Under the pieces are notes generated by a model that made no database searches, was not told the DNA's origin, and saw nothing but the letters and a program-made list of their open reading frames with translations. From assembly GCA_044348005.1 (NCBI GenBank), contig JBIKTR010000004.1, positions 66,980-130,979 of the forward strand: 64,000 nucleotides of DNA, in the 5' to 3' direction. Of the stretch, positions 3,611 to 56,115 are shown in pieces. This stretch comes from Vampirovibrionales bacterium (GTDB taxonomy: Bacteria > Cyanobacteriota > Vampirovibrionia > Vampirovibrionales > JAJTHC01). The translations under genes were made by a program, and so were the position numbers. How positions within the stretch are numbered: the first letter of the stretch is position 1; every line of letters starts with the position of its first letter.

Positions 3611-4096
3611 TTAGAAAAGAGCCCCCTCACCCCAACCCTCTCCCAGAGGGAGAGGGGGTAAAGCCAGCTTGCCGACGGCGCACTAAATGCGAGGCTTCCG
3701 AGACATTTTGCGCACGGCAGGAACGGAGCGAAAGCGAGAGGGGTGGGATAAACTCATTCACGAAGTGAATCTACTTCTTTAGGATGGAGAGGTTAGGAGA
3801 GGAAACCAACGGTTTTCTTTCCTAAGAGAAAAAGTCAGAGACTTTTTCGACGGGAGGGGGATTCTTAAGGGGGGCATACTGGGGGGAGGGAGGACGTAAC
3901 ACGTCCCTCCCCCCGCCGCCCCTTAAGCCGCTTTGGGGGTTTGGGGAGTCTTTGGCGGGACAAAGACCCCCAAGCACCAGCTCAAAAAGGGAACAAGAAA
4001 ACCCCCTCACCCCAACCCTCTCCCAAAGGGAGAGGGAGTAAAACGCCCTTTCGCAGAGTCTTCTATAATACAGAAAACTCCTAGGTTTAAAGGAAG
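3611..4096. repeat. Mosaic cluster of small palindromic repeats (families R1, R4, R5, R6)
   Basis: R1 hairpin ccctctccc-aga-gggagaggg at 3622-3663 and 4002-4044; 3661-3730 is the reverse complement of 12425-12511; 3735-3835 matches 20896-20996; 3884-3997 is near-identical to 25272-25398. Confidence 0.85.
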
Positions 4097-9289: not shown

Positions 9290-9620
9290 CCTGTAGTATT
9301 TTAAAGAGTTTTCCATACAGTAGGCTAGACAAGGAGCCTAGATTATTTTGTGAAGGAGTGTAGATAGACCTACATGACTGAACAAAATAATCGTAGCGAC
9401 AAAGTATAGACACTGTAGGGGAAATTATTTAAAACACTATAACATAAATCTACAGGGGAGTAGACCGAATCTTTGTTGTCGACGTATACTTAATTTTATA
9501 AGTTTACGAAGCTGTCTTTACTCCCTCTCCCTATGGGAGAGGGTTGGGGTGAGGGATTCGGGATGCCCTATTGGAGCTGGTGTTTCCCTCATCCTAGCAT
9601 AGCCCGCCATAGGCGAGGCG
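9290..9620. repeat. Intergenic repeat cluster (family C element plus inverted R1 element with GWGEGFGMPYWSW extension)
   Basis: 9519-9560 is the reverse complement of the R1 consensus; 9300-9420 shares acagtaggcta..ggagcctagatt and cgtagcgacaa with 39700-39830 and 54525-54650. Confidence 0.6.
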
Positions 9621-10859: not shown

Positions 10860-11025
10860 TTCATAAACAATTAAGAAATTACCCCTTGCATTATTTAAAT
10901 AAGTCGTTCATAATGGTGAAGATGGTTCTTTGAAATTTTCATATACATGTAATGACCCACCAAAAAAGGCAAGTGCTTACGAGGTTTAAACCCCTTTGGC
11001 ACGACGCTGTTTTTTAAAGACATGG

Positions 11026-11462
11026 GGTCGTTCTGGACTTGACAGGACGAATTCTTGTGACTGGGTTGCGCGTCGAGGACGCTTAATCCTCGTTAATCCT
11101 GAGCAAAACAATAAATGCAGAAACTCAAACTGCTCGCAACAATGTTGTTGCTTTTGCACGTCCAGTACGTGCAAAAATCGCTGCTTAATTCTTTTAAGTA
11201 GTAAACATTGCTTGTTCCCACACATGCTATCATGCTGCTAAGGTGGGCTTGCTAATTCGCATGACCATGCTGAAAGACTCATTGGCTCTTCAGTACAGCG
11301 TATGCGTCAATGCGTCCGAACACGGACGTAAAACGGGTTAAAGTTCGTGGTGAACTGGGGTACACAGCTACCACGAAACGAAACACTCTAAAGTTACCTA
11401 CACGCGTAGACGCCTGGAGGCAATCGTTTTGGACGAGGGTTCGATTCCCTCCGACTCCACCA
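11026..11462 (+). ncRNA. ssrA: Transfer-messenger RNA (ssrA)
   Basis: 5' GGGGUCGUUCUGGACUUGACAGGACG and 3' GGACGAGGGUUCGAUUCCCUCCGACUCCACCA (T-arm and acceptor with G3-U70); tag frame GCU CGC AAC AAU GUU GUU GCU UUU GCA CGU...GCU GCU UAA gives ARNNVVAFARPVRAKIAA, resembling cyanobacterial ANNIV.FAR..AA tags. Confidence 0.75.
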
Positions 11463-11753
11463 TTTTTTGTGGGTCGTTACATGGTATGGATGAATCAGAC
11501 GTGTTTGTTTTGACGATGCCCTGAATCTCCCGGTTTTTAGATTTTTTCCAAAACATCCTTTTTTGAAGAACGATTAAAGTTCCTATTTTAGTGTTTCTGC
11601 TGAAGATCTCTCGGTACTTGGTTGGTTAGTGATCAGATTTTCGGTTGACGTTTTGATTTTGAAAAACTTCCCGTTTTTTTGCGATAGTTCGCCAGTTGCA
11701 AAAAAATGTTTTACTCTGTTGGCGGAACTTATTTTGATTAGGAACTTTTGATT

Positions 11754-12131
11754 ATGAAATTATATGTGGGCAACGTGCCTTTTTCTGCGAACGATGATGA
11801 ATTGTTGGCGTTATTTGTAGACTGTGGCGAAGTGCAGTCTTGCCGCATCGTGATGGATCGTGAAACGGGCCGTTCTCGTGGATTCGCGTTTGTTGAAATG
11901 GACAACGACGAAGAAGCGAAAGTTGCCATTGAACGTTTAGATGGATTTGACATGAACGGTAAAGTCTTACGCGTCAACGAAGCACGTCCTCGTGAAGCGC
12001 GTCCAGTCGGCGGTGGCGGTGGCTATCGTGGCGGCGGCGGCGGCGGTGGCTATCGTGGCGGCGGCGGTGGCGGTGGACGCTCCGGTGGCGGCGGCTACGG
12101 CGGCGGCGGTGGTGGCGGTGGACGCTGGTAG
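11754..12131 (+). CDS. RRM-type glycine-rich RNA-binding protein
   Basis: RNP2 LYVGNV and RNP1 RGFAFVEM motifs; C-terminal GGGYRGGGGGG repeats; ~290 nt leader upstream. Confidence 0.85.
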   Translation: MKLYVGNVPFSANDDELLALFVDCGEVQSCRIVMDRETGRSRGFAFVEMDNDEEAKVAIERLDGFDMNGKVLRVNEARPREARPVGGGGGYRGGGGGGGYRGGGGGGGRSGGGGYGGGGGGGGRW

Positions 12132-13478: not shown

Positions 13479-13508
13479 ACTAGCTAGGGTTTGTGCTACA
13501 ATACAGGC

Positions 13509-15698
13509 ATGGATGCCTTAGCTCTTACCCCCCTTCAACAACGATGCCAAACGTGGTCGCAACTCGCCCAAGCCCGAAATTGGTCCGCGCTTGACGCCCT
13601 TAATCAAGACACGATCAACACCCTTAAACAGGCGTGGCAAGGCCACGGCGTGCTTGCCACCCTACAATGGAACCCCCACCCCGGAGATCTGGCGGGCAAC
13701 GCGCAACTGGTGGAACAGGCCATGCAATTCGCCGAAGCCCTCGGCGCCGATGCCCTTGTGCTTCCAGAACAAACGCTCTTGGGCTACCCCTTGCGAGACA
13801 TGCTCTTGCGCTTTCCCAAGCTGGTGAAAGACAATGAATCGGCGCTACAGGCCTTGGCGTTAAAATCAGGCCACACGCGGGTTTTTGTGGGTTTTGCTGA
13901 GCGTCGTTACGACGCGGATGAAGGCTGGGGCCATTCCTGGGGCAAGCCGTATTACAACAGCGTGGCCATTTTAGGCGGGGGCGTCATTCAAGGCGTGGTG
14001 CGAAAAAGCCTGTTGCCGAATTACCATGAATTTGAAGATTCTCGGGTGTTTGAAGCCAGCGAAACCCCCGGCGTCCAGCGATGGGAACTCCCTCACCCCA
14101 ACCCTCTCCCAGAGGGAGAGGGAGTAAGACAGGGGGCTGTGGCCTTAGAACCCTCTCCCTCTGGGAGAGGGCAGGGTGAGGGTTTCGACCAGCTCGAGGG
14201 GGGGGAAGACCCTCATCCTAACCTTCTCCCAGAGGGAGAAGGAACAAAACCCCCTCACCCCAACCCTCTCCCAGAGGGAGAGGGAGTAAAAGACCCCCTC
14301 GACGCCTACGGCAACATCACCATTCACGGACGCAAGTTCGCCGTGACGGTGTGTGAAGACCTATGGGCGAACGAACCGAATCAACACCCGTGGTACAAGC
14401 AAAACGTCGTCGCCCCGCTCATGCAAGGGCATCCCGATGTGCTGGTGAACCTGTCGTCGTCGCCGTCTCGGGCGGGCAAGGAATACCGCAGGCAGTCGCT
14501 CTTGCGTTCGATTGCCACGCAGTACCGCACCCCCATTCTCTACGTCAACCAAGTCGGCGCGGTGGATGAACTCATCTTCGACGGAGGCTCTCGGTTGGTG
14601 GGGGCGCACGGCGAAATGCTCAGTCGTTCGCGCTTGTTTGAAACGCAGTTTAGCCTGCATCATCTGCAAAACACGGCCTTTCACACCCTTGAAGACTGGG
14701 TGCCTGATGTGGAACTTTCCCAACGAAGCCTGCCCAACGATGTGTTTGACCCCTACGATCCAAGCGATTTGCCGCGCACGTATGCCGCCCTGACCTGCGG
14801 GATTCGCGATTACTTCGACAAATGCGGATTCACGCGCGCGGTGTTGGGCCTTTCTGGCGGACTCGATTCCGCCGTCAATGCCGTGTTAGTGGCGGATGCC
14901 TTGGGGGCTGAAAACGTGCTAGCCTTTAGCTTTCCTTCTGAGCTCACGCCTGCTGACAATAAAGACGACGCCCTACAACTCGCCCAAAATCTTGGCATCG
15001 GCTGGGTGGAAATCCCTATTTCGGCGATGCAATCGGCGTTTTTAGAGGGCATTGACGCCGAACGCCAAACGCTAGAATCGTTGTGGGGCAAGCCGACTAG
15101 CGAAAGTTTTGCGAAAGACAACGTACAAGCCATGAGCCGTGCGACGCTGTTGAGACTCATTGGCAATGATTACCGCGCCCTGCCCATTGCCACCAGTGAC
15201 AAAAGCGAGTTTTACATGGGTTACGCCACCGTGAATGGGGATATGTCTGGGGCGTTGGCGCCGTTGGGCGATGTGTGCAAAACCAAGGTGCGCGCCTTGG
15301 CCCGCTGGATCAATCAACAGCGCGGGGGGGTGATACCGCAAGCCGTGGTGGAACGTCCTTCGGGGGCGGATTTGGCGGTGAATCCGCAAACAGGCCAACT
15401 GTTGACGGCCGAAGAAGCGTTGATGCCCTATGAAGTGATTGACGAGTTGATTTGGCGGATTGAAGCCCACCACCTAGATGCCGCCCGCCTAAGCACCCTG
15501 CTGTGGAGCTGGGAACGCACGCACGGTAGACTTGAACCCACGCAGAAGGCGGCGTGGGTGGGTAAGTTTTTTAGGCGCATGCAGGCCAGTGTGTTTAAGT
15601 GGTGGGTGGCCCCGCCGATGTTGCTGGTGGACGCCAACGGCACGCTGGCAAAATCGGCGTACCACCCCGTGATTACCGCAATGAAGACGCTATACTAG
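13509..15698 (+). CDS. nadE: Glutamine-dependent NAD+ synthetase (nitrilase domain plus NAD synthetase domain) carrying an in-frame 70-aa repeat insertion
   Basis: N-terminal CN-hydrolase region (VCEDLWA); C-terminal NadE (LGLSGGLDSAV P-loop-like SGGxDS); ATG at 13509, the ORF can extend to TTG 13491. Confidence 0.85.
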   Translation: MDALALTPLQQRCQTWSQLAQARNWSALDALNQDTINTLKQAWQGHGVLATLQWNPHPGDLAGNAQLVEQAMQFAEALGADALVLPEQTLLGYPLRDMLLRFPKLVKDNESALQALALKSGHTRVFVGFAERRYDADEGWGHSWGKPYYNSVAILGGGVIQGVVRKSLLPNYHEFEDSRVFEASETPGVQRWELPHPNPLPEGEGVRQGAVALEPSPSGRGQGEGFDQLEGGEDPHPNLLPEGEGTKPPHPNPLPEGEGVKDPLDAYGNITIHGRKFAVTVCEDLWANEPNQHPWYKQNVVAPLMQGHPDVLVNLSSSPSRAGKEYRRQSLLRSIATQYRTPILYVNQVGAVDELIFDGGSRLVGAHGEMLSRSRLFETQFSLHHLQNTAFHTLEDWVPDVELSQRSLPNDVFDPYDPSDLPRTYAALTCGIRDYFDKCGFTRAVLGLSGGLDSAVNAVLVADALGAENVLAFSFPSELTPADNKDDALQLAQNLGIGWVEIPISAMQSAFLEGIDAERQTLESLWGKPTSESFAKDNVQAMSRATLLRLIGNDYRALPIATSDKSEFYMGYATVNGDMSGALAPLGDVCKTKVRALARWINQQRGGVIPQAVVERPSGADLAVNPQTGQLLTAEEALMPYEVIDELIWRIEAHHLDAARLSTLLWSWERTHGRLEPTQKAAWVGKFFRRMQASVFKWWVAPPMLLVDANGTLAKSAYHPVITAMKTLY
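14086..14295 (+). repeat. Four palindromic repeat units inserted in frame within nadE
   Basis: R1 units at 14089-14136 and 14253-14295 and R2-like units at 14148-14196 and 14210-14250 translate as LPHPNPLPEGEGV...PSPSGRGQGEG...PHPNLLPEGEGT..PHPNPLPEGEGV between VQRWE and LDAYGNITIHG. Confidence 0.85.
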
Positions 15699-16639: not shown

Positions 16640-17175
16640 ATAGAACCCTCCCTCCTCCTAGCCTCCTCCCTTAGGGAGGAGGAACAAGAACCCCCTCACC
16701 CCAACCCTCTCCCAGAGGGAGAGGGAGTAAATACAGAACCCTCCCTCCACCTAACCTCCTCCCTAAGGGAGGAGGAACAGAACCCTCTCCCTAAGGGAGG
16801 AGGAACAAGAACCCTCTCCCTTAGGGAGCACGCCTCGCCGATGGCGGGCTACGCAGGGTGAGGGAAACGACCAGCTCCAGTGGGGAAGAGTCCCTCCTCC
16901 TAGCCTCCTCCCTTAGGGAGGAGGAACAAGAACCCTCTCCCTTAGGGAGAGGGCAGGGTGAGGGAAACGACCAGCTCCAGTCGGGAAGAGTCCCTCCTCC
17001 TAACCTTCTCCCAAAGGGAGGAGGAATAAGAACCCTCTCCCTTAGGGAGAGGGCAGGGTGAGGGAAACGACCAGCTCCAGTCGGGAAGAGTCCCTCCTCC
17101 TAGCCTCCTCCCTTAGGGAGGAGGAACAGAACCCCCTCACCCCAACCCTCTCCCAGAGGGAGAGGGGGTAAATAC
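16640..17175. repeat. BIME-like tandem mosaic array of hairpin units (families R1, R2, R3)
   Basis: About 11 units: R3 cctcctccc-tta-gggaggagg (LLLASSLREEEQ), R2 ccctctccc-tta-gggagagggcagggtgagggaaacgaccagctccag (three copies), and R1 at 16686-16730 and 17133-17175; irregular unit order with no unique spacers. Confidence 0.85.
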
Positions 17176-17207: not shown

Positions 17208-19145
17208 ATGAACGCCCCCTATTCCCCCGATCAAAACCCCTACGTCCACCTTGCGAGCTTTTGCCGAACGGCCGTGTGGCAAGAAATGGATGCCATTAAC
17301 GAAGCGCTGCCCCCTGAAGCCCAGTTTTTGGCCCGCCTGCAAAGCCCCCCCGCCTGGGATGCCCGCCGCCAAGCCATCATTGAAAAACGCACCGCCCTTT
17401 ACGAACGCCTCAAGCAAGACGACGCGCTGGCCGAACTCATGCACCACGACTGCCGAAACAACATCCTGCTGTGGTTTCGCTACTTCGCGTGGACGTACGA
17501 CCCACGCCCCAACCCCTTTCAAAACGGCAATCGAAGCATTGGGCGCGTGCCCTTTGTGCTGTACCCCTTTCAAATGGAAGTCGTCTTGCGCTTGAATGAA
17601 GCCATTGAATTGGGGGAAGATTTACTGGTGGAAAAAAGCCGAGACATGGGCCTTTCTTGGTTAATTAGTTTGGTGTTTCAGTACCGCTGGTTGTTTCATT
17701 CAGGCCAGCAATTTTTGGTGGGCAGTCGTAAATACGGCCATGCAGACACGCGCGGCGATCTTTCCACGCTGATGGAAAAATGCCGTTTCAACCTGCGTGA
17801 ACAGCCCACCAATATGTTGCCTGCGGGCTTTGACTTTCGCAAGCACGATGTCGCCGGTCGTCTGCTGAATCCGCAAAATGGCAATACCATTATTGCTGAA
17901 GCCACTACGGAAAACTTTGCGCGGGGGGGGCGTTATTCCGCCGTATTGCTGGACGAATTTGCGTTTTGGATGTGGGATGATGGCGCCTATGCTGCGGCGG
18001 GTCAGTCCACGCTGTGTCGCTTGTTGGTGTCAACGCCCAACGGTCGAAAAAACCGCTTTGCCCTAGAACGCTTTTCAGGCCTTACCCCCGTGCTAACCGT
18101 GCATTGGAGCCTTCACCCTTTTAAGGACAAGGTGTGGTACACCGCACAGCAACGGCGCCTGTTGAAGCATGAAATCGCGCGAGAGCTGGATATTAGCTAC
18201 GAATACTGCAATCGAGATCGCGTGTTTGAAGAGTTTACCGCTCAACATGTGGCGCACGTGGCGTATAATCCGGATTTGGAGATTTTGCGTTCGTGGGATT
18301 TTGGGTACCATACGCCTGCGGTGTTGGCCTTACAGCGGGACGAATGGGGCCGTGTGGTGGTGTTGAAAGAATGGGTGGGCCAACGCGTGGTGCTCAAAAA
18401 CTTTGCCCAGCAGGTGAAAGACGACTGCGTGGCGATGTTTGGCCCCAATGCGCGCTTTCGCGATGTGTGTGACCCTGCGGGGCATCAGCATAACGACAAA
18501 TCTGAAAACACCAGTATTGAAGTGCTCAATCGCATGGGTATTCACCCTGTGGGCGTGCGATGTGGCGTGGTTGCTAGCATTGACAAGCTTCGCCACCTGA
18601 TGATTGAAGAGCGCGATGTGCCAGTGTCCCTCACCCCAGCCCTCTCCCAAAGGGAGAGGGAGCAAGGCGACCCTCACCCCAACCCTCTCCCAGAGGGAGA
18701 GGGGGTAAATACAGAACCCTCTCCCTTAGGGAGAGGGCTGGGTGAGGGACACGACCAGCTCCTGTGGGAACAAGGCATCCCTCCACCTAGCCTCCTCCCT
18801 AAGGGAGGAGGAACAAATGCCAGTGAAGAAGCCGTCTTCATGCGTGAAGGCCAGCACATGGTCAAATCCCCCGCCTTTTTGGTGGATGCTCAACATTGCC
18901 CCACGCTCATTGACGCCTTGCAAGGGGGGTATCGCTATGTGTCGAATGATTCGGAAGAACTGGCGCAGGAGCATCCCTTTGAAGATGTGGCGGATGCCTT
19001 GCGTTACGCCGTGTGGGAATTGGGCAAACTGCTGATGGATTCGTCTGATTGGGCGCGGGACTTGCGAAAGGAGCGGTATCAGAAGTGGGAAGCGTTGGAA
19101 AAGTTGCGTCGCTACAACCAGCGCCGTGGGCAGTGGTATGCCTAG
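17208..19145 (+). CDS. Phage terminase large subunit (Terminase_6-like) with in-frame repeat insertion
   Basis: KSRDMGLSWL P-loop variant (KSRQ.G.S type), VLLDEFAFW Walker B, C-terminal nuclease region WDFGYHTPAVLAL...DVCDPAG; no portal, capsid or small-subunit genes nearby. Confidence 0.75.
   Translation: MNAPYSPDQNPYVHLASFCRTAVWQEMDAINEALPPEAQFLARLQSPPAWDARRQAIIEKRTALYERLKQDDALAELMHHDCRNNILLWFRYFAWTYDPRPNPFQNGNRSIGRVPFVLYPFQMEVVLRLNEAIELGEDLLVEKSRDMGLSWLISLVFQYRWLFHSGQQFLVGSRKYGHADTRGDLSTLMEKCRFNLREQPTNMLPAGFDFRKHDVAGRLLNPQNGNTIIAEATTENFARGGRYSAVLLDEFAFWMWDDGAYAAAGQSTLCRLLVSTPNGRKNRFALERFSGLTPVLTVHWSLHPFKDKVWYTAQQRRLLKHEIARELDISYEYCNRDRVFEEFTAQHVAHVAYNPDLEILRSWDFGYHTPAVLALQRDEWGRVVVLKEWVGQRVVLKNFAQQVKDDCVAMFGPNARFRDVCDPAGHQHNDKSENTSIEVLNRMGIHPVGVRCGVVASIDKLRHLMIEERDVPVSLTPALSQREREQGDPHPNPLPEGEGVNTEPSPLGRGLGEGHDQLLWEQGIPPPSLLPKGGGTNASEEAVFMREGQHMVKSPAFLVDAQHCPTLIDALQGGYRYVSNDSEELAQEHPFEDVADALRYAVWELGKLLMDSSDWARDLRKERYQKWEALEKLRRYNQRRGQWYA
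18625..18822 (+). repeat. R1-R1-R2-R3 repeat units inserted in frame within the terminase gene
   Basis: Translate as SLTPALSQREREQGDPHPNPLPEGEGVNTEPSPLGRGLGEGHDQLLWEQGIPPPSLLPKGGGTNA, in the same orientation and frame type as the nadE insertion. Confidence 0.85.
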
Positions 19146-19149
19146 TCGG

Positions 19150-19503
19150 TTAAATTTCTTTGAGCCTGTAGAGCTTAAACACTTGAGACACGACTTGCCC
19201 TTGCGTCACCTGCAAACGGCTGGATTCCGCCTTAATGAAATTAACGACCTCCTCATCCACACGGAGCGTCAGGATTTTAGCCCCTGTTTTGGGCTTGCGT
19301 CCTGCTTTTTTCATGGGCTTAAACTTGCCCTGCAAAAAAGCTTCGTAAGAAGAGTCAAGCATCTCGTAAAACATTTCGTAAGCGTCTTCTCGTTTTTCTT
19401 CGACCCCTGCAATGTTAATACACAGGGGAGAGGTGACGATAAACGCGTGGTCTTCTTCGCTCCACTTGCAGGTGACACTGTTTTTGATGGCGTCTAAATC
19501 CAT
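19150..19503 (-). CDS. hicB: HicB-family antitoxin
   Basis: N-terminal HicB tadpole-like region (HAFIVTSPLCINIAGVEEKREDAYEMFYEMLD) plus C-terminal RKPKTGAKILTLRVDEE RHH-like tail; 1-nt overlap with hicA. Confidence 0.7.
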   Translation of the reverse strand: MDLDAIKNSVTCKWSEEDHAFIVTSPLCINIAGVEEKREDAYEMFYEMLDSSYEAFLQGKFKPMKKAGRKPKTGAKILTLRVDEEVVNFIKAESSRLQVTQGQVVSQVFKLYRLKEI

Positions 19504-19727: not shown

Positions 19728-19981
19728 GAGATCTCTTTCTTGGCACATTTTATAATTATATATTAGCGTAATACAAAATAAATTACAAGTGCTTTAAGCA
19801 AAAAAACTGGCGTTGGAAAAGTTGCGTCGCTACAACCAGCGCCGTGGGCAGTGGTATGCCTAGTCGGTTGCGGGCGATGCTTCCTGTTTGCTTTCTGTGC
19901 TAGCCCGCCCCCTCGACAAGTGCGTGAAAATAGGGTAGACTAGGGGCAGTTGTTGCGTTGTGTGTGGAAGGAAATGCCCCC

Positions 19982-20859: not shown

Positions 20860-21110
20860 GAAAGTGGATTTACTCCCACTCCCTTAGGGAGAGGAAAACA
20901 AGCTTCTCATTCACGAAGTGAATCTTCACCTTTAGGAAGGAGAGGTTGGGAGAGGAAACCAACGGTTTTCTTTCCCAAGAGAAAAAGCTTGCTTTTTCGA
21001 CCATGGTGGGGTGAGGGATTTGGGATGTTCAGTTATAGCTGGTGTTTCCCTCCCTTAGGTCGCACGCCTCGCCTATGGCGTGCTCCCTAAGGGAGGAGGG
21101 AGAGCGAGGG
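20860..21110. repeat. Intergenic repeat cluster (R1 fragment, R4 copy, inverted R1 with GWGEGFGMF extension)
   Basis: 20896-20996 matches 3735-3835 (attcacgaagtgaat palindrome); 21005-21050 is the reverse complement of R1 plus the extension seen at 9560-9600 and 56040-56075. Confidence 0.6.
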
Positions 21111-21905: not shown

Positions 21906-22085
21906 GGTCGCCACGCCATAGCTTGCCACATATACCGCCTTTACCACAGATTCATCAAACATAAAAACGCCTTCTTTCTTTTTTGTGTGCTGTGGCTATT
22001 ATACCCCCATCCTGAAAAAGAAACCACTGCTGGCTCGCTTCCTGCCCCCGCTCCCTTTGGGAGAGGGTTGGGGTGAGGGGGAAGT

Positions 22086-25189: not shown

Positions 25190-25450
25190 GGGTGAGGGGG
25201 CTTTCTCATTCCGTTTAACGCTGGTGCTGTCAGAGACCTTTGCTCGCACAAAGGTTCTCCGACACCTCTAAATGCGCTTAAGGGAGGGAGGGAGGACGTA
25301 ACACGTCCCTCCCCCCGCCGCCCCTTAAGCCGCTTTGGGGGTTTGGGGAGTCTTTGGCGGGACAAAGACCCCCAAGCACCAGCTCAAAAAGGGAACAAGA
25401 AAACCCCCTCACCCCAGCCCTCACCCAGAGGGAGAGGGAGCGAGAAAACC
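25190..25450. repeat. Intergenic mosaic repeat cluster (R5, R1 variant, TIR-like segment)
   Basis: 25205-25290 matches 12300-12400; 25272-25398 is near-identical to 3884-3997; R1 variant at 25406-25445. Confidence 0.75.
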
Positions 25451-49996: not shown

Positions 49997-50809
49997 ATGT
50001 TTTTTTTAGAAACCCTTGACACGCCGAGTCAAAAAGCCTTACAAGACTTAACCAAAGACTTTGACCCCCAAAAACCAACCCTACTCGTTTACAGTGGGCC
50101 TTCAGGCGTAGGGAAAGGGGTGCTGCGTAACGCCCTTTACACGGGCCACAGTGATTACGGCAAGGGCTATAAAGGCGTGCCGTGGCAACACTTTCAAGCG
50201 ACTGTTTCCGCCACAACTCGCCCCGCCAGGTCTTGTGAAACAGAAGGGGTGGACTATTATTTTTTAAATAGCGAACGTTTTAATCAAAAGCTAAAAACGG
50301 ACGACTTTCTTGAATGGAAGGCTTCAGGTTCTGGAGACCTGTACGGTACCCTTAAAAGTGAAATAGATCGTATTGCTCAACTGGGTTTATTGCCTGTTTT
50401 AGAAATTGAAACAGAAGGCAAGAAAGAAATCGACAAACTGAAGTCTATGTACAATGTGTTGAGTCTATTTATTTTACCCCCTGCTCAGGAAGATCTGATA
50501 CTCAAACAAGAACTTTCTGCTCAGGTGGGTATTATGCTTTCAGAACAACCCACCCTAAAGCGTTTACTTCAAGCCCTTAATACCCCTGAACTTTCAGCCC
50601 AACTAACAACGCTCTACAGTCGCTTGAATCATCGCAGTACTGAAAACAAGGCCAAACGTTTTTTACGATTAACAAAAGCCGTTGAAGAACTCAAAGAAGC
50701 CCCCCATTACGATGTCGTCCTCGTCAATGACACCTTAAAGGAAGCCGTTCCTAAAGTGCAAGCCGTGTTTGAAGCCGTGTATAACGGCAGTCACCTACAC
50801 AACCACTAA
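49997..50809 (+). CDS. gmk: Guanylate kinase with N-terminal extension and internal insertion
   Basis: P-loop SGPSGVGKG; TTRPAR...EGVDYYF; 270 aa versus ~200 typical. Confidence 0.7.
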   Translation: MFFLETLDTPSQKALQDLTKDFDPQKPTLLVYSGPSGVGKGVLRNALYTGHSDYGKGYKGVPWQHFQATVSATTRPARSCETEGVDYYFLNSERFNQKLKTDDFLEWKASGSGDLYGTLKSEIDRIAQLGLLPVLEIETEGKKEIDKLKSMYNVLSLFILPPAQEDLILKQELSAQVGIMLSEQPTLKRLLQALNTPELSAQLTTLYSRLNHRSTENKAKRFLRLTKAVEELKEAPHYDVVLVNDTLKEAVPKVQAVFEAVYNGSHLHNH

Positions 50810-55989: not shown

Positions 55990-56115
55990 CTCTAAAAAAG
56001 TGGCTTTACTCCCTCTCCCTCTGGGAGAGGGTTGGGGTGAGGGATACGGGATGCCCCGTCAGAGCTGGTGTCCCTCCTCGCGACAACAAAGAGAACATAG
56101 ACCATTTTATCTTTC
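55990..56115. repeat. Inverted R1 element with GWGEGYGMPRQSW extension plus a family C fragment
   Basis: 55996-56045 is the reverse complement of R1; 56070-56110 cgcgacaacaaagagaacatagaccattttatc resembles 39790-39826. Confidence 0.7.

Follow-up and report, generated by a model that had tools for sequence, protein, structure and literature searches.

The repeat family closest to the elements studied here is BoxC/PIT/TMECO, a triplex-motif family known since the 1990s and described from more than 260 genomes, including those of cyanobacteria (Holder et al. 2015, PMC4666352). Its units, about 34–40 nt long, are defined by two pyrimidine-rich blocks and one purine-rich block of 9 nt each, joined by 1–6-nt loops, and these blocks formed an intrastrand triplex in vitro (CD, NMR). 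In Escherichia coli K-12, 23 units per 4.6 Mb occupy 18 loci; they are reported to be always intergenic, with no mobile-element association and no partner gene, and their inverted pairs always combine a type A with a type B unit, while no stable triplex is seen in vivo and close relatives differ strongly at their hypervariable TM loci (Holder et al. 2015, PMC4666352). The Rickettsia palindromic elements (RPEs) are in-frame palindromic selfish repeats of about 100–150 bp, specific to Rickettsia, that lie at fold-compatible positions in functional, often essential genes, with intergenic copies as well and a conserved peptide for each family (Ogata et al. 2000, 2002). Intragenic ERIC, BOX, cyanobacterial MITE and 'Cod-2' repeats (Delihas 2007, 2011; Croucher 2011; Wolk 2010; Cozzuto 2008) are different, lineage-restricted families, none of them linked to the DUF559 proteins discussed below.

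Here we describe a 64,000-nt stretch of a Vampirovibrionales genome (GenBank assembly GCA_044348005.1, contig JBIKTR010000004.1; hereafter the window), in which, on the reading that we consider probable, four BoxC/PIT/TMECO units are read through within a loop of a functional nadE and the units are satellites of an element centred on DUF559. A preliminary description of the same sequence had reported a 210-nt array of four hairpin units in frame in nadE at 14086–14295; the ORF indeed reads straight through, a profile scan finds four units and the length stands, but the codon-aligned segment begins 4 nt earlier (Table 1). Across it the uninterrupted ORF (mechanically called at 13491..15698, plus strand, from a TTG start at 13491) translates as ...GVQRWE-LPHPNPLPEGEGVRQGAVALEPSPSGRGQGEGFDQLEGGEDPHPNLLPEGEGTKPPHPNPLPEGEGVK-DPLDAYGNITIHG..., with a left peptide junction of VQRWE-LPHPNPLPEGEG and a right one of EGEGVK-DPLDAYG. 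We infer that the array is translated as part of NadE, to which it would add about 60–66 residues of Pro/Gly/Glu-rich peptide.

Table 1. Coordinates of nadE, terL and the repeat units in the window (strand "." where none applies).
Feature	Position	Strand	Details or evidence
nadE, glutamine-dependent NAD+ synthetase	13509..15698	+	ATG 13509 'MDAL...'; Pfam, NCBIfam
Repeat array in nadE, 70 codons (ORF codons 198-267)	14082..14291	+	between conserved VQR and DPLD
Unit 1, type A, CCCTCACCCC-AA-CCCTCTCCC-AGA-GGGAGAGGG	14086..14127	+	nhmmer E 2.8e-13
Unit 2, type B, shorter spacer, ...GGGCAGGGTGAGGG	14145..14185	-	nhmmer E 1.2e-11
A+/B- inverted doublet (units 1+2)	14086..14190	.	ssDNA fold
Unit 3, variant A' (CCCTCATCCTAACCTTCTCCCAGAGGGAGAAGG)	14207..14247	+	nhmmer E 1.6e-12
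Unit 4, type A	14249..14290	+	profile scan
Terminase large subunit homolog (terL)	17208..19145	+	phrog_2 E 1.5e-16, residues 48-617
Four-unit in-frame array in terL (A+, A+, B-, type 2+)	18627..18817	+	profile scan
Intergenic array, 11 units, two sub-types, upstream of terL	16649..17172	.	profile scan
Two intergenic type A units, 3623-3662 and 4001-4042	3623..4042	+	core + profile scans
Solitary intergenic unit	9517..9558	-	profile scan
Partial intergenic unit	20869..20894	-	profile scan
Solitary intergenic unit	22045..22079	-	profile scan
Solitary intergenic unit	25403..25442	+	profile scan
Solitary intergenic unit	56005..56044	-	profile scan

The units measure 35–42 nt and share a plan of three 9-nt blocks, CCCTCACCC / CCCTCTCCC / GGGAGAGGG, combining a 9-bp hairpin with a third strand-like block. 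Unit 1 of the nadE array folds as such a hairpin (-10 kcal/mol, z -2.6), and unit 2, inverted relative to it and similar to the E. coli TMECO type B, forms with it a long near-perfect hairpin, in which the difference in spacer between A and B leaves a small internal loop; as ssDNA the doublet folds at -41.4 kcal/mol (z -7.3), which 0 of 200 shuffles equalled. The variant A' of unit 3 recurs at the equal array position in two relatives (P0002 and L019), and unit 4 joins DPLD exactly as the single unit of a third (L001) does. Block for block, the three 9-nt sequences match E. coli TMECO types A and B exactly, with 3-nt loops: on the reverse strand the window unit reads CCCTCTCCC-TCT-GGGAGAGGG-TTG-GGGTGAGGG, and TMECO no. 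17 reads CCCTCTCCC-TGA-GGGAGAGGG-TTA-GGGTGAGGG. The blocks are likewise identical to the triplex-forming ones, hairpin folding being what was computed here, and A and B spacer types and an inverted A+B doublet are present in units 1 and 2. By these sequence matches the units are members of the BoxC/PIT/TMECO family and not a new repeat family. No Rfam family covers them at gathering thresholds.

As in other BoxC/PIT/TMECO genomes, the units are dispersed, multi-copy and conserved within the genome. Their 20-nt core, CCTCTCCCAGAGGGAGAGGG, has 32 matches at 18 sites in the window when up to 3 mismatches are allowed, against 0.00 expected by chance (100 dinucleotide-preserving shuffles), and the profile scan finds about 26 units of two sub-types, a density of about 0.4 per kb that sets the window apart from the described family and that, like all our unit counts, comes from short-read MAG assemblies, in which repeats can collapse. 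Intergenic copies are among them, as first reported. No RAYT/Y1_Tnp or other transposase was detected among the 30 window ORFs scanned.

The host gene gives every appearance of being intact. Its product carries only CN_hydrolase and NAD_synthase domains (Pfam), matches NAD+ synthase in NCBIfam and retrieves about 4700 homologs; the catalytic residues E93, K172 and C288 are invariant (alignment A1), and dN/dS outside the insert is 0.09–0.20 against 10 relatives. Since the catalytic residues are intact and dN/dS is this low, nadE with its insert is, at the level of sequence, a functional gene under purifying selection, and not the pseudogene that the preliminary description had allowed for. A predicted model of the 729-residue protein (pLDDT 86.6, pTM 0.88) has a TM-score of about 0.8 to the solved structures 3n05, 4f4h and 5kha. 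The insert lies in the glutaminase (nitrilase-fold) domain, between the catalytic Lys and Cys in primary sequence, and pLDDT below 50 is confined to residues 198–259, the sole long low-confidence coil of the model. PDB alignments break at the insert, with flanks there only about 4–10 residues apart, and in 63 unit-free homologs the same loop consists of 14–49 unconserved residues. The insert occupies a naturally hypervariable loop that is predicted to be disordered, and the model and the variability of the loop together would place it on the protein surface. No intein Hint domain was found in the protein (Pfam) and no group I or II intron in the window (Rfam, gathering thresholds), where the sole Rfam match is a tmRNA. 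A terminator or promoter role for the units inside nadE was considered and rejected, there being no consensus sites.

Among relatives the nadE site is polymorphic, holding a remnant or one, two or four units in differing reading frames. Two sister clades carry units there and outgroups do not; outgroup orthologs have unrelated short native loops at this position, so the insert is lineage-specific, as anticipated in the preliminary description. The left junction (...CGNTGGGAA up to the insert) and the right junction (GACCCC directly after it) are common to both clades. Comparison of the alleles shows that colonisation of the loop dates from the common ancestor of these two sister Vampirovibrionales clades, and that the array has since been turned over through recombination or deletion at the level of units. 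Neither a target-site duplication nor a precise empty site could be reconstructed at nadE from the relatives compared, because the ancestral loop has diverged. Relative to the literature that we searched, the polymorphism of this site is new.

Window copies of the repeat also differ from the described BoxC/PIT/TMECO copies in that not all are intergenic: about 8 of the 26 lie in frame within genes, four of them in nadE and four in terL, a gene whose identity is also backed by tblastn to phage TerL and by alignment A4. The first terL unit is read in frame 1, with the unit's TAA replaced by CAA. This array is missing from distant TerL relatives, numbers two units in a 97% identical relative (P0241) and has another arrangement in the TerL of L007. 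Further in-frame units occur in viral contigs, in lysozyme, Mu-F, portal, S49 peptidase and recombinase genes. In-frame genic copies, including the second array in terL, are new relative to the searched literature. An enlarged guanylate kinase gene in the window (49997-50809), examined as a third genic insert, was rejected, its extra segments not being repeat units.

In three sister nadE alleles (P0002, P0005/L019 and L007), a whole ORF for a YcjD-like DUF559 nuclease of the Vsr/PD-(D/E)XK fold lies in frame at the insert site, with direct copies of the unit array on either side. P0002 and P0005 contain the domains PF04480, PF00795 and PF02540 only. The cassette DUF559 aligns with the solved structure 3HRL at E 5e-23 (VELDGSQH to VEADGGQH), carries the E-x-D-G-x-Q-H motif of the family and matches PRK09767 in NCBIfam; the L007 copy has a decayed motif, ELDKGSRG. 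This cassette at the exact nadE site is not visible from the window sequence, and the 64-kb window has no DUF559 gene of its own. Free-standing DUF559 genes of the same subfamily in other phyla are arranged as [A+ B-] - DUF559 - [A+ B-], and their stop codon directly adjoins a unit; they were found in Pseudomonadota, at Acinetobacter-like loci and in E. coli K-12, where a unit remnant sits at the stop codon of ycjD and TMECO no. 9 follows some 170 nt further downstream. Bracketing of DUF559 genes, ycjD among them, is a further departure from BoxC/PIT/TMECO as described. Flanking by units was seen at the DNA level in L021, L022, L024, L025, L028 and L030, and at 10 of 11 loci the gene between the units is DUF559. 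The flanking doublet in L007 and L021 is the same A+/B- doublet as nadE units 1+2, and inverted A+/B- pairs also occur in L025 and L028. The junctions of DUF559 with its units hold constant across phyla, the end of the B- unit lying 6–48 nt ahead of the start codon and the beginning of the A+ unit about -12 to +7 nt from the stop codon. Of the best 120 DUF559 homologs 18 are extended, and every one of these has a unit-encoded peptide at its end. Between Cyanobacteriota and Pseudomonadota the unit is about 90% conserved, against about 50–60% for the DUF559 protein, and in L029 a variant DUF559 is paired with variant units. These sequence patterns suggest that DUF559 and the units may be a co-transferred, co-evolving module.

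From unit to DUF559 the relationship is weak, with DUF559 found at 1 of 120 viral loci selected for units (L044) and at 1 of 18 E. coli loci. A metagenome scan for DUF559 by alignment, run with overly specific back-translated patterns, returned a single distant locus, L020, which has 38% identity and lacks units. The association runs in one direction only and is equally compatible with DUF559 as a later coloniser of arrays already in place. No publication linking DUF559 or YcjD with BoxC, PIT, REP or palindromic repeats was found in our search, which most subscription journals lay outside, and no biochemical activity of YcjD/DUF559 is reported in the literature searched; relative to that literature the link to the units is new.

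To account for this association, we propose that the units are non-autonomous satellites of a selfish element centred on DUF559, by analogy with REPINs and their RAYT transposase or with a homing endonuclease and its target. DUF559 supplied in trans would nick or cleave at units, with repair from other copies to follow, and such cleavage and repair could drive both the spread of units and the observed hypervariability. The nadE array of the window would then be the DUF559-less remainder left by recombination between flanking arrays. REP/REPIN–RAYT systems resemble ours in their short GC-rich hairpin units, inverted doublets and many copies, all seen here, and in having hundreds of satellites per single protein gene, that gene itself unit-bracketed, with a genome-specific homogenised variant. 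They differ in that the gene bracketed here is not a Y1 HUH transposase but a PD-(D/E)XK/Vsr-fold DUF559, mobilisation by which is our proposal, and in that our units have a third block and no GTAG/CGTC tag. With Vsr-like EDxHD homing endonucleases (I-Bth0305I, PDB 3r3p) and inteins, the nadE alleles share a conserved essential gene that houses a small nuclease ORF of the Vsr/DUF559 clade, presence/absence polymorphism between near relatives and, in L007, a decayed nuclease; unlike these, they have no intron or intein signatures, the ORF is read through as part of NadE, and repeat arrays, not exon homology, flank DUF559. More tentatively, and with slightly less than even confidence, we suggest that BoxC/PIT/TM repeats at large could be the non-autonomous partners of YcjD-like DUF559 proteins, in a cross-phylum selfish system based on a Vsr-fold PD-(D/E)XK nuclease, also present in phages, that inserts in frame and can graft its nuclease domain into the essential NadE without destroying it.

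The strongest alternative, which we judge rather unlikely, is that DUF559 is a passenger: the units would be old and self-sufficient, spread by host recombination, replication slippage or structure-induced breaks, as in the proposal of Holder et al., DUF559, an independent selfish gene, would insert into unit arrays much as IS1397 targets BIMEs, and the nadE array would be independent of it. Most units do lie far from any DUF559, E. coli has 23 units to one ycjD, and the window lacks the gene; moreover, unit-unit recombination with identical junctions is enough to explain the differences between allele arrays, and the E. coli TM loci are hypervariable with no enzyme implicated. A passenger, however, does not readily account for junctions with the units that are fixed across phyla, for units better conserved between phyla than the protein they surround, or for the variant units that accompany the variant DUF559 of L029. 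An assembly artefact, in which repeats were misjoined, or a decaying nadE backed by another copy, is hardly credible: the window and its relatives appear to be MAG or metagenome contigs, in which repeats assemble poorly, yet units occur at exactly this site, always in frame, in at least 8 independent assemblies from different studies, and the substitution rates and catalytic residues are those of a working enzyme.

Two further readings concern the encoded peptide. The preliminary description proposed a peptide-encoding mobile repeat, itself selected to be stop-free as proposed for RPEs, and was correct that two of the three forward frames of the main unit type are open, as are two of the three reverse frames; the units found within ORFs, in the window and in viral contigs, also fit this proposal. 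The four open frames of six, however, compare with a mean of 4.4 in shuffles of the same composition, and the other types have fewer than their shuffles (type B, 3 vs 4.2; type 2, 2 vs 3.9), so that intrinsic stop-codon avoidance by the units was rejected. The 524-nt intergenic array, moreover, has 4–9 stop codons in each of the six frames, and in viral contigs up to 39% of units lie within ORFs against 74% of random positions, a depletion. Nor is one peptide kept, since the unit is read in differing frames in L001, L002 and TerL, the frames encoding PHPNPLPEGEG, LTPALSLRER or PSPSGRGQGEG, and at the nadE site itself L002 uses frame 1, which required a TAA to CAA change in the unit tail. What is conserved is the DNA unit and not the peptide that it encodes, and we regard a stop-free, peptide-encoding repeat as improbable. 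The nadE array is open in exactly one of six frames, that of the host, because selection on the host gene has removed out-of-frame and stop-bearing variants. The analogy with RPEs drawn in the same description survives as one of tolerated in-frame selfish DNA at a structurally permissive site, which the nadE insert occupies, but not as one of a conserved peptide; by description, too, the units here, at about 40 nt, cross-phylum, in variable arrays and in several frames, stand apart from RPEs. That the insert is instead an adaptive low-complexity linker evolved by the host, serving for example NadE oligomerisation or regulation, is very improbable. Its retention in frame in several lineages and the purifying selection on the gene are what such a linker would lead one to expect, but the DNA is identical to repeats dispersed between genes and to repeats of other phyla, close relatives differ in the peptide according to frame, number of units and orientation, L005, 90% identical to L007, has almost nothing at the site, and the insert is without structure in the model.

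Through these observations the notion of 'selfish DNA inside proteins', in its classical form a peculiarity of Rickettsia, takes in a repeat family found in hundreds of bacterial genomes and in phages, which supplies many natural experiments on protein loops that tolerate 15–250 extra residues. The observations also point to a candidate partner protein for the BoxC/PIT repeats and to a candidate function for DUF559/YcjD, neither of which has so far been explained. If the partner reading is true, it would end about 30 years of BoxC/PIT/TM as an orphan repeat family, and E. coli K-12, with its single ycjD and its BoxC units, makes it testable by standard genetics and biochemistry. Annotation is affected as well: pipelines routinely extend ORFs through units or split host genes around DUF559 cassettes, as at metH in L024, and many 'hypothetical protein' calls would be put right once the module is recognised.

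Pfam assigns the nadE product two domains of a glutamine-dependent NAD+ synthetase (CN_hydrolase at residues 55-187 and NAD_synthase at 432-661), NCBIfam NAD+ synthase models agree on its identity, and the ORF reading, the count of a 20-nt unit core (18 sites in the window versus 0.00 expected from shuffled sequences) and a profile scan (~26 units of two sub-types in the window) together confirm the in-frame repeat units within it. The preliminary description of these units, at 14086-14295, was right in all but its boundaries, the codon-aligned edges sitting 4 nt further left; its interpretation is partly supported. No Rfam family matched the units, and a full-text search on the core sequence pointed to the paper of Holder et al. 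(2015; PMC4666352), in which the E. coli triplex-motif unit TMECO type A is CCCTCTCCC-TGA-GGGAGAGGG-TTA-GGGTGAGGG; the window unit reads CCCTCTCCC-TCT-GGGAGAGGG-TTG-GGGTGAGGG on the opposite strand, with identical sequence in all three blocks. The other unit type in the window is similar to TMECO type B. Judged from sequence, the units are BoxC / PIT / "G/C-rich intrastrand triplex motif" repeats, and thus not a new family. BoxC/PIT/TMECO loci are hypervariable and the function of the repeats is not known (Holder et al. 2015). In E. coli K-12 the units are described as always intergenic and without mobile-element association (PMC4666352), whereas family members in the window are also genic and in frame. 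Small repeats fused in frame to ORFs are already known from Rickettsia palindromic elements, ERIC, BOX, cyanobacterial MITEs and Cod-2; the nadE insertion adds a case from a new lineage to this established type of event, and involves an established repeat family.

Residues E93, K172 and C288, which we take from established nitrilase-fold knowledge to be the Glu-Lys-Cys triad, are invariant in our NadE alignment (A1), and dN/dS outside the insert is 0.09-0.20 between the window nadE and ten relatives. The NadE ColabFold model (mean pLDDT 86.6, pTM 0.88) superposes well on solved NadE structures (target-normalised TM-score ~0.8), and its sole long stretch of pLDDT <50, residues 198-259, corresponds to the insert and is predicted to be coil. 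Sequence alignments with 4f4h and 5kha break at the insert, where the crystal structures have only ~4-10 residues, and the loop at this site comprises 14-49 unconserved residues in 63 unit-free homologs and 84 in the window NadE. Mapped against NadE structures, as the preliminary description had proposed, the insert is predicted to occupy a loop, and the crystal-structure gap, the variable loop of unit-free homologs and the low-pLDDT coil all point to a naturally permissive site, flanked by the strand that follows the catalytic Lys and the hairpin that leads up to the catalytic Cys. No intron or intein signature was found by Pfam on the NadE protein or Rfam on the window, nor any terminator-like signal within nadE.

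The suggestion that the repeat itself has been selected for stop-free frames fared less well. The main unit is indeed open in four of six frames, but the mean number of open frames is 4.4 for same-composition shuffles and 3.5 for random 39-mers drawn from the window, giving no sign of stop avoidance, and we reject the idea that avoidance of stops shaped the unit. Of the six frames of the whole 210-nt nadE array, only that of nadE is open, and the probability that a same-composition shuffle is open in a given frame is ~0.12. The open frame of the nadE array is a footprint of host-gene selection.

Close relatives of the window nadE, itself from a Vampirovibrionales (Melainabacteria) genome, fall into two sister clades (the window with L001, L002 and L003, at 85-92% amino-acid identity; L004, L005, L007 and L019, at 84-90%), and units or remnants occupy the nadE site in every member of both. 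The outgroups L006 and L008/L009 (65-71% identity) carry native loops unrelated to the units, in keeping with the expectation that the insert is lineage-specific. Because the left (...CGNTGGGAA|) and right (|GACCCC) junctions are common to both clades, the sequences favour a single, ancient colonisation. The two junctions of the single L001 unit equal the outer junctions of the window's four-unit array, as expected if recombination between units expands and contracts arrays, and the frame change in L002 results from 1-nt and 2-nt length differences flanking the unit, whose tail TAA has become CAA. Together, the results show in-frame arrays in permissive loops, turnover at the level of units, and host-gene selection that keeps the frame open. 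The L003 contig (JBEISK010000038.1) is labelled as a "Gammaproteobacteria bacterium" MAG; its NadE is 89% identical to that of the window and groups with Vampirovibrionales, and the contig is probably mis-binned.

Three sister-lineage nadE alleles (P0002; P0005, which is L019; and L007) carry a complete ORF for DUF559 (PF04480, a YcjD-like putative nuclease) in frame exactly at the insert site, between direct copies of the unit array. The domain is closely homologous to PDB 3HRL; its E-x-D-G-x-Q-H motif is kept in L019 and P0002, and motif and start codon have decayed in L007. Since DUF559 identity between alleles (67-77%) is below that of the host NadE (82-85%), vertical descent under relaxed constraint, then repeated loss, would fit. 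The 120 closest DUF559 homologs are mostly free-standing ~122-aa proteins of Acinetobacter, Cellvibrio and other Pseudomonadota, and among these all 18 with extended ends have unit-encoded peptide there. At the DNA level, a B- unit ends 6-48 nt before the DUF559 start codon (L022, L025, L028, L030) and the stop codon is adjoined or overlapped by an A+ unit (L021, L022, L025, L030), even in 37-43% GC DNA; DUF559 cassettes have fixed gene-unit junctions, across phyla and at the nadE site. In L024 (1056-4133), a cassette with unit-encoded ends lies between the S-methyl_trans/Pterin_bind and B12-binding parts of an apparent methionine synthase (metH), split by the gene caller into overlapping ORFs; metH may thus be a further example of a core gene entered at an interdomain linker. 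Another cassette, with at least eight units, lies inside a type I restriction-modification locus (L025/L026, 1-5100) between hsdM and two hsdS-like genes, and its extended DUF559 ORF bears the JGI name "type I restriction enzyme M protein". The sole DUF559 gene of E. coli K-12, ycjD, carries a BoxC remnant that covers its stop codon (the protein ends ...RRSPSP), and TMECO no. 9, a full unit, lies ~170 nt downstream, adjoining fabI; by our own arithmetic, with 18 TMECO loci in 4.6 Mb, the chance of such proximity is ~0.003. BoxC was first noticed in the sequence of envM (= fabI).

Units also lie within other genes. Distant relatives of the window's terminase large subunit homolog (TerL) have nothing at its array site, a 97% identical TerL (P0241) has two in-frame units there, and the L007 TerL array is arranged differently yet in frame. 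An unusual B-unit variant with an extra hairpin-loop segment (peptide EPSPLGSTPRRWRATQGEG) occurs in both the P0242 TerL array and the P0002 nadE array, which hints at exchange or co-amplification between loci. An exact-pattern scan found units in >120 viral or proviral contigs, where 39% lie in long open frames versus 74% of random positions, and so units are depleted in ORFs, though far from absent. In IMG/VR contigs, where Pfam verified genuine host genes, the domain match of a phage lysozyme and that of a Mu-F-like head protein each contain an in-frame unit, and units also lie in linker or terminal regions of an S49 peptidase, a serine recombinase and a portal protein, in the last in frame and C-terminal to its domain.

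We propose that a selfish element centred on DUF559 has the units as its satellites, and that the window nadE array is what would remain after recombination between two flanking arrays deleted the nuclease gene. DUF559 would act in trans, nicking or cutting at units and possibly recognising the A/B doublet hairpin (-41.4 kcal/mol, z -7.3, with a small internal loop at the point where A and B spacers are opposed), and repair from other unit copies would then spread and reshuffle units. The main alternative makes DUF559 a secondary coloniser of pre-existing unit arrays. From the units, the link to DUF559 is weak, with a unit-flanked DUF559 in one of 120 unit-selected viral loci (L044), a picture in which satellites would be abundant and nuclease genes scarce, as in REP/RAYT systems. 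Secondary colonisation is the less likely reading, because the DUF559-unit junctions are conserved, the unit is strongly conserved across phyla relative to the DUF559 protein, and L029 pairs a diverged DUF559 gene with diverged units (three-block, with CCCCC/GGGGG stems), which may reflect co-evolution of nuclease and repeat. The L029 locus (275-1983) has Imm11 immunity-like genes interspersed in alternation with two DUF559 genes, of which one is a fragment. No link between DUF559/YcjD and BoxC-type repeats was found in the literature, which was incompletely searchable; the genic habit of the family and its DUF559 linkage, including a nuclease domain in frame in relatives' NadE, appear unreported, and both are testable in E. 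coli.

Coordinates and layouts of the features described (unit types A and B differ in spacer, and A' is a variant of A; + and - give orientation)
Feature	Location	Strand	Details
tmRNA gene	11024-11462		Rfam RF00023, 134 bits
nadE ORF	13491..15698	+	uninterrupted through flagged segment; likely start ATG 13509
nadE inserted array	14082-14291	+	70 codons, GVQR to DPLDAYG (both conserved); four ~40-nt units
nadE unit 1	14086-14127	+	profile scan
nadE unit 2	14145-14185	-	profile scan
nadE unit 3	14207-14247	+	profile scan
nadE unit 4	14249-14290	+	profile scan
Intergenic array	16649-17172		524 nt; 4-9 stops in each frame
terL homolog	17208..19145		phrog_2 matches flank in-frame array on both sides
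terL in-frame array	18627-18817		four units; profile scan
nadE site, L001			one unit
nadE site, L002			L001's unit, same orientation, other frame: PLTPALSLRERGQ in place of PHPNPLPEGEGVK
nadE site, L003			remnant
nadE site, L005			possible remnant
nadE site, P0006			two units (window: four)
Cassette, L019			[A+ A+ A'+ B-]-DUF559-[A+ A+ A'+ B-]
Cassette, L007			[A+ B-]-DUF559-[A+ B-]
Cassette, L021			[A+ B-]-DUF559-[A+ B-] (DNA level)
ycjD locus, L027	NC_000913.3 1351205-1351760		E. coli K-12; DUF559 and BoxC remnant
Viral lysozyme	L061 1033-1653		in-frame unit
Viral Mu-F-like protein	L130 3615-4970		in-frame unit
Viral portal protein	L042 4726-6813		in-frame unit

Two different Vampirovibrionales genomes (the window and L007, 4564-6462) have a terL homolog ~1.5 kb downstream of nadE. 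Many Melainabacteria MAGs hold relatives at 45-50% identity, and because the ORFs beside terL gave no phage matches the gene may be an orphan terminase that is conserved and possibly domesticated, not a recent prophage. A perfect 60-nt direct repeat (19092-19151 and 19810-19869), its first copy spanning the terL stop codon, brackets a 658-nt segment with an ORF (19126-19497, 124 aa) for which no family match was found; either an insertion that left a long duplication or an error of assembly could account for this arrangement. The guanylate kinase ORF (49997-50809, 270 aa) has a Pfam match split by lineage-specific extra segments, which we considered as repeat units and rejected, as they are not units. 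After the tmRNA gene, 11748-12131 encodes, as read by eye, an apparent small RRM-type RNA-binding protein with a long Gly/Arg-rich tail.
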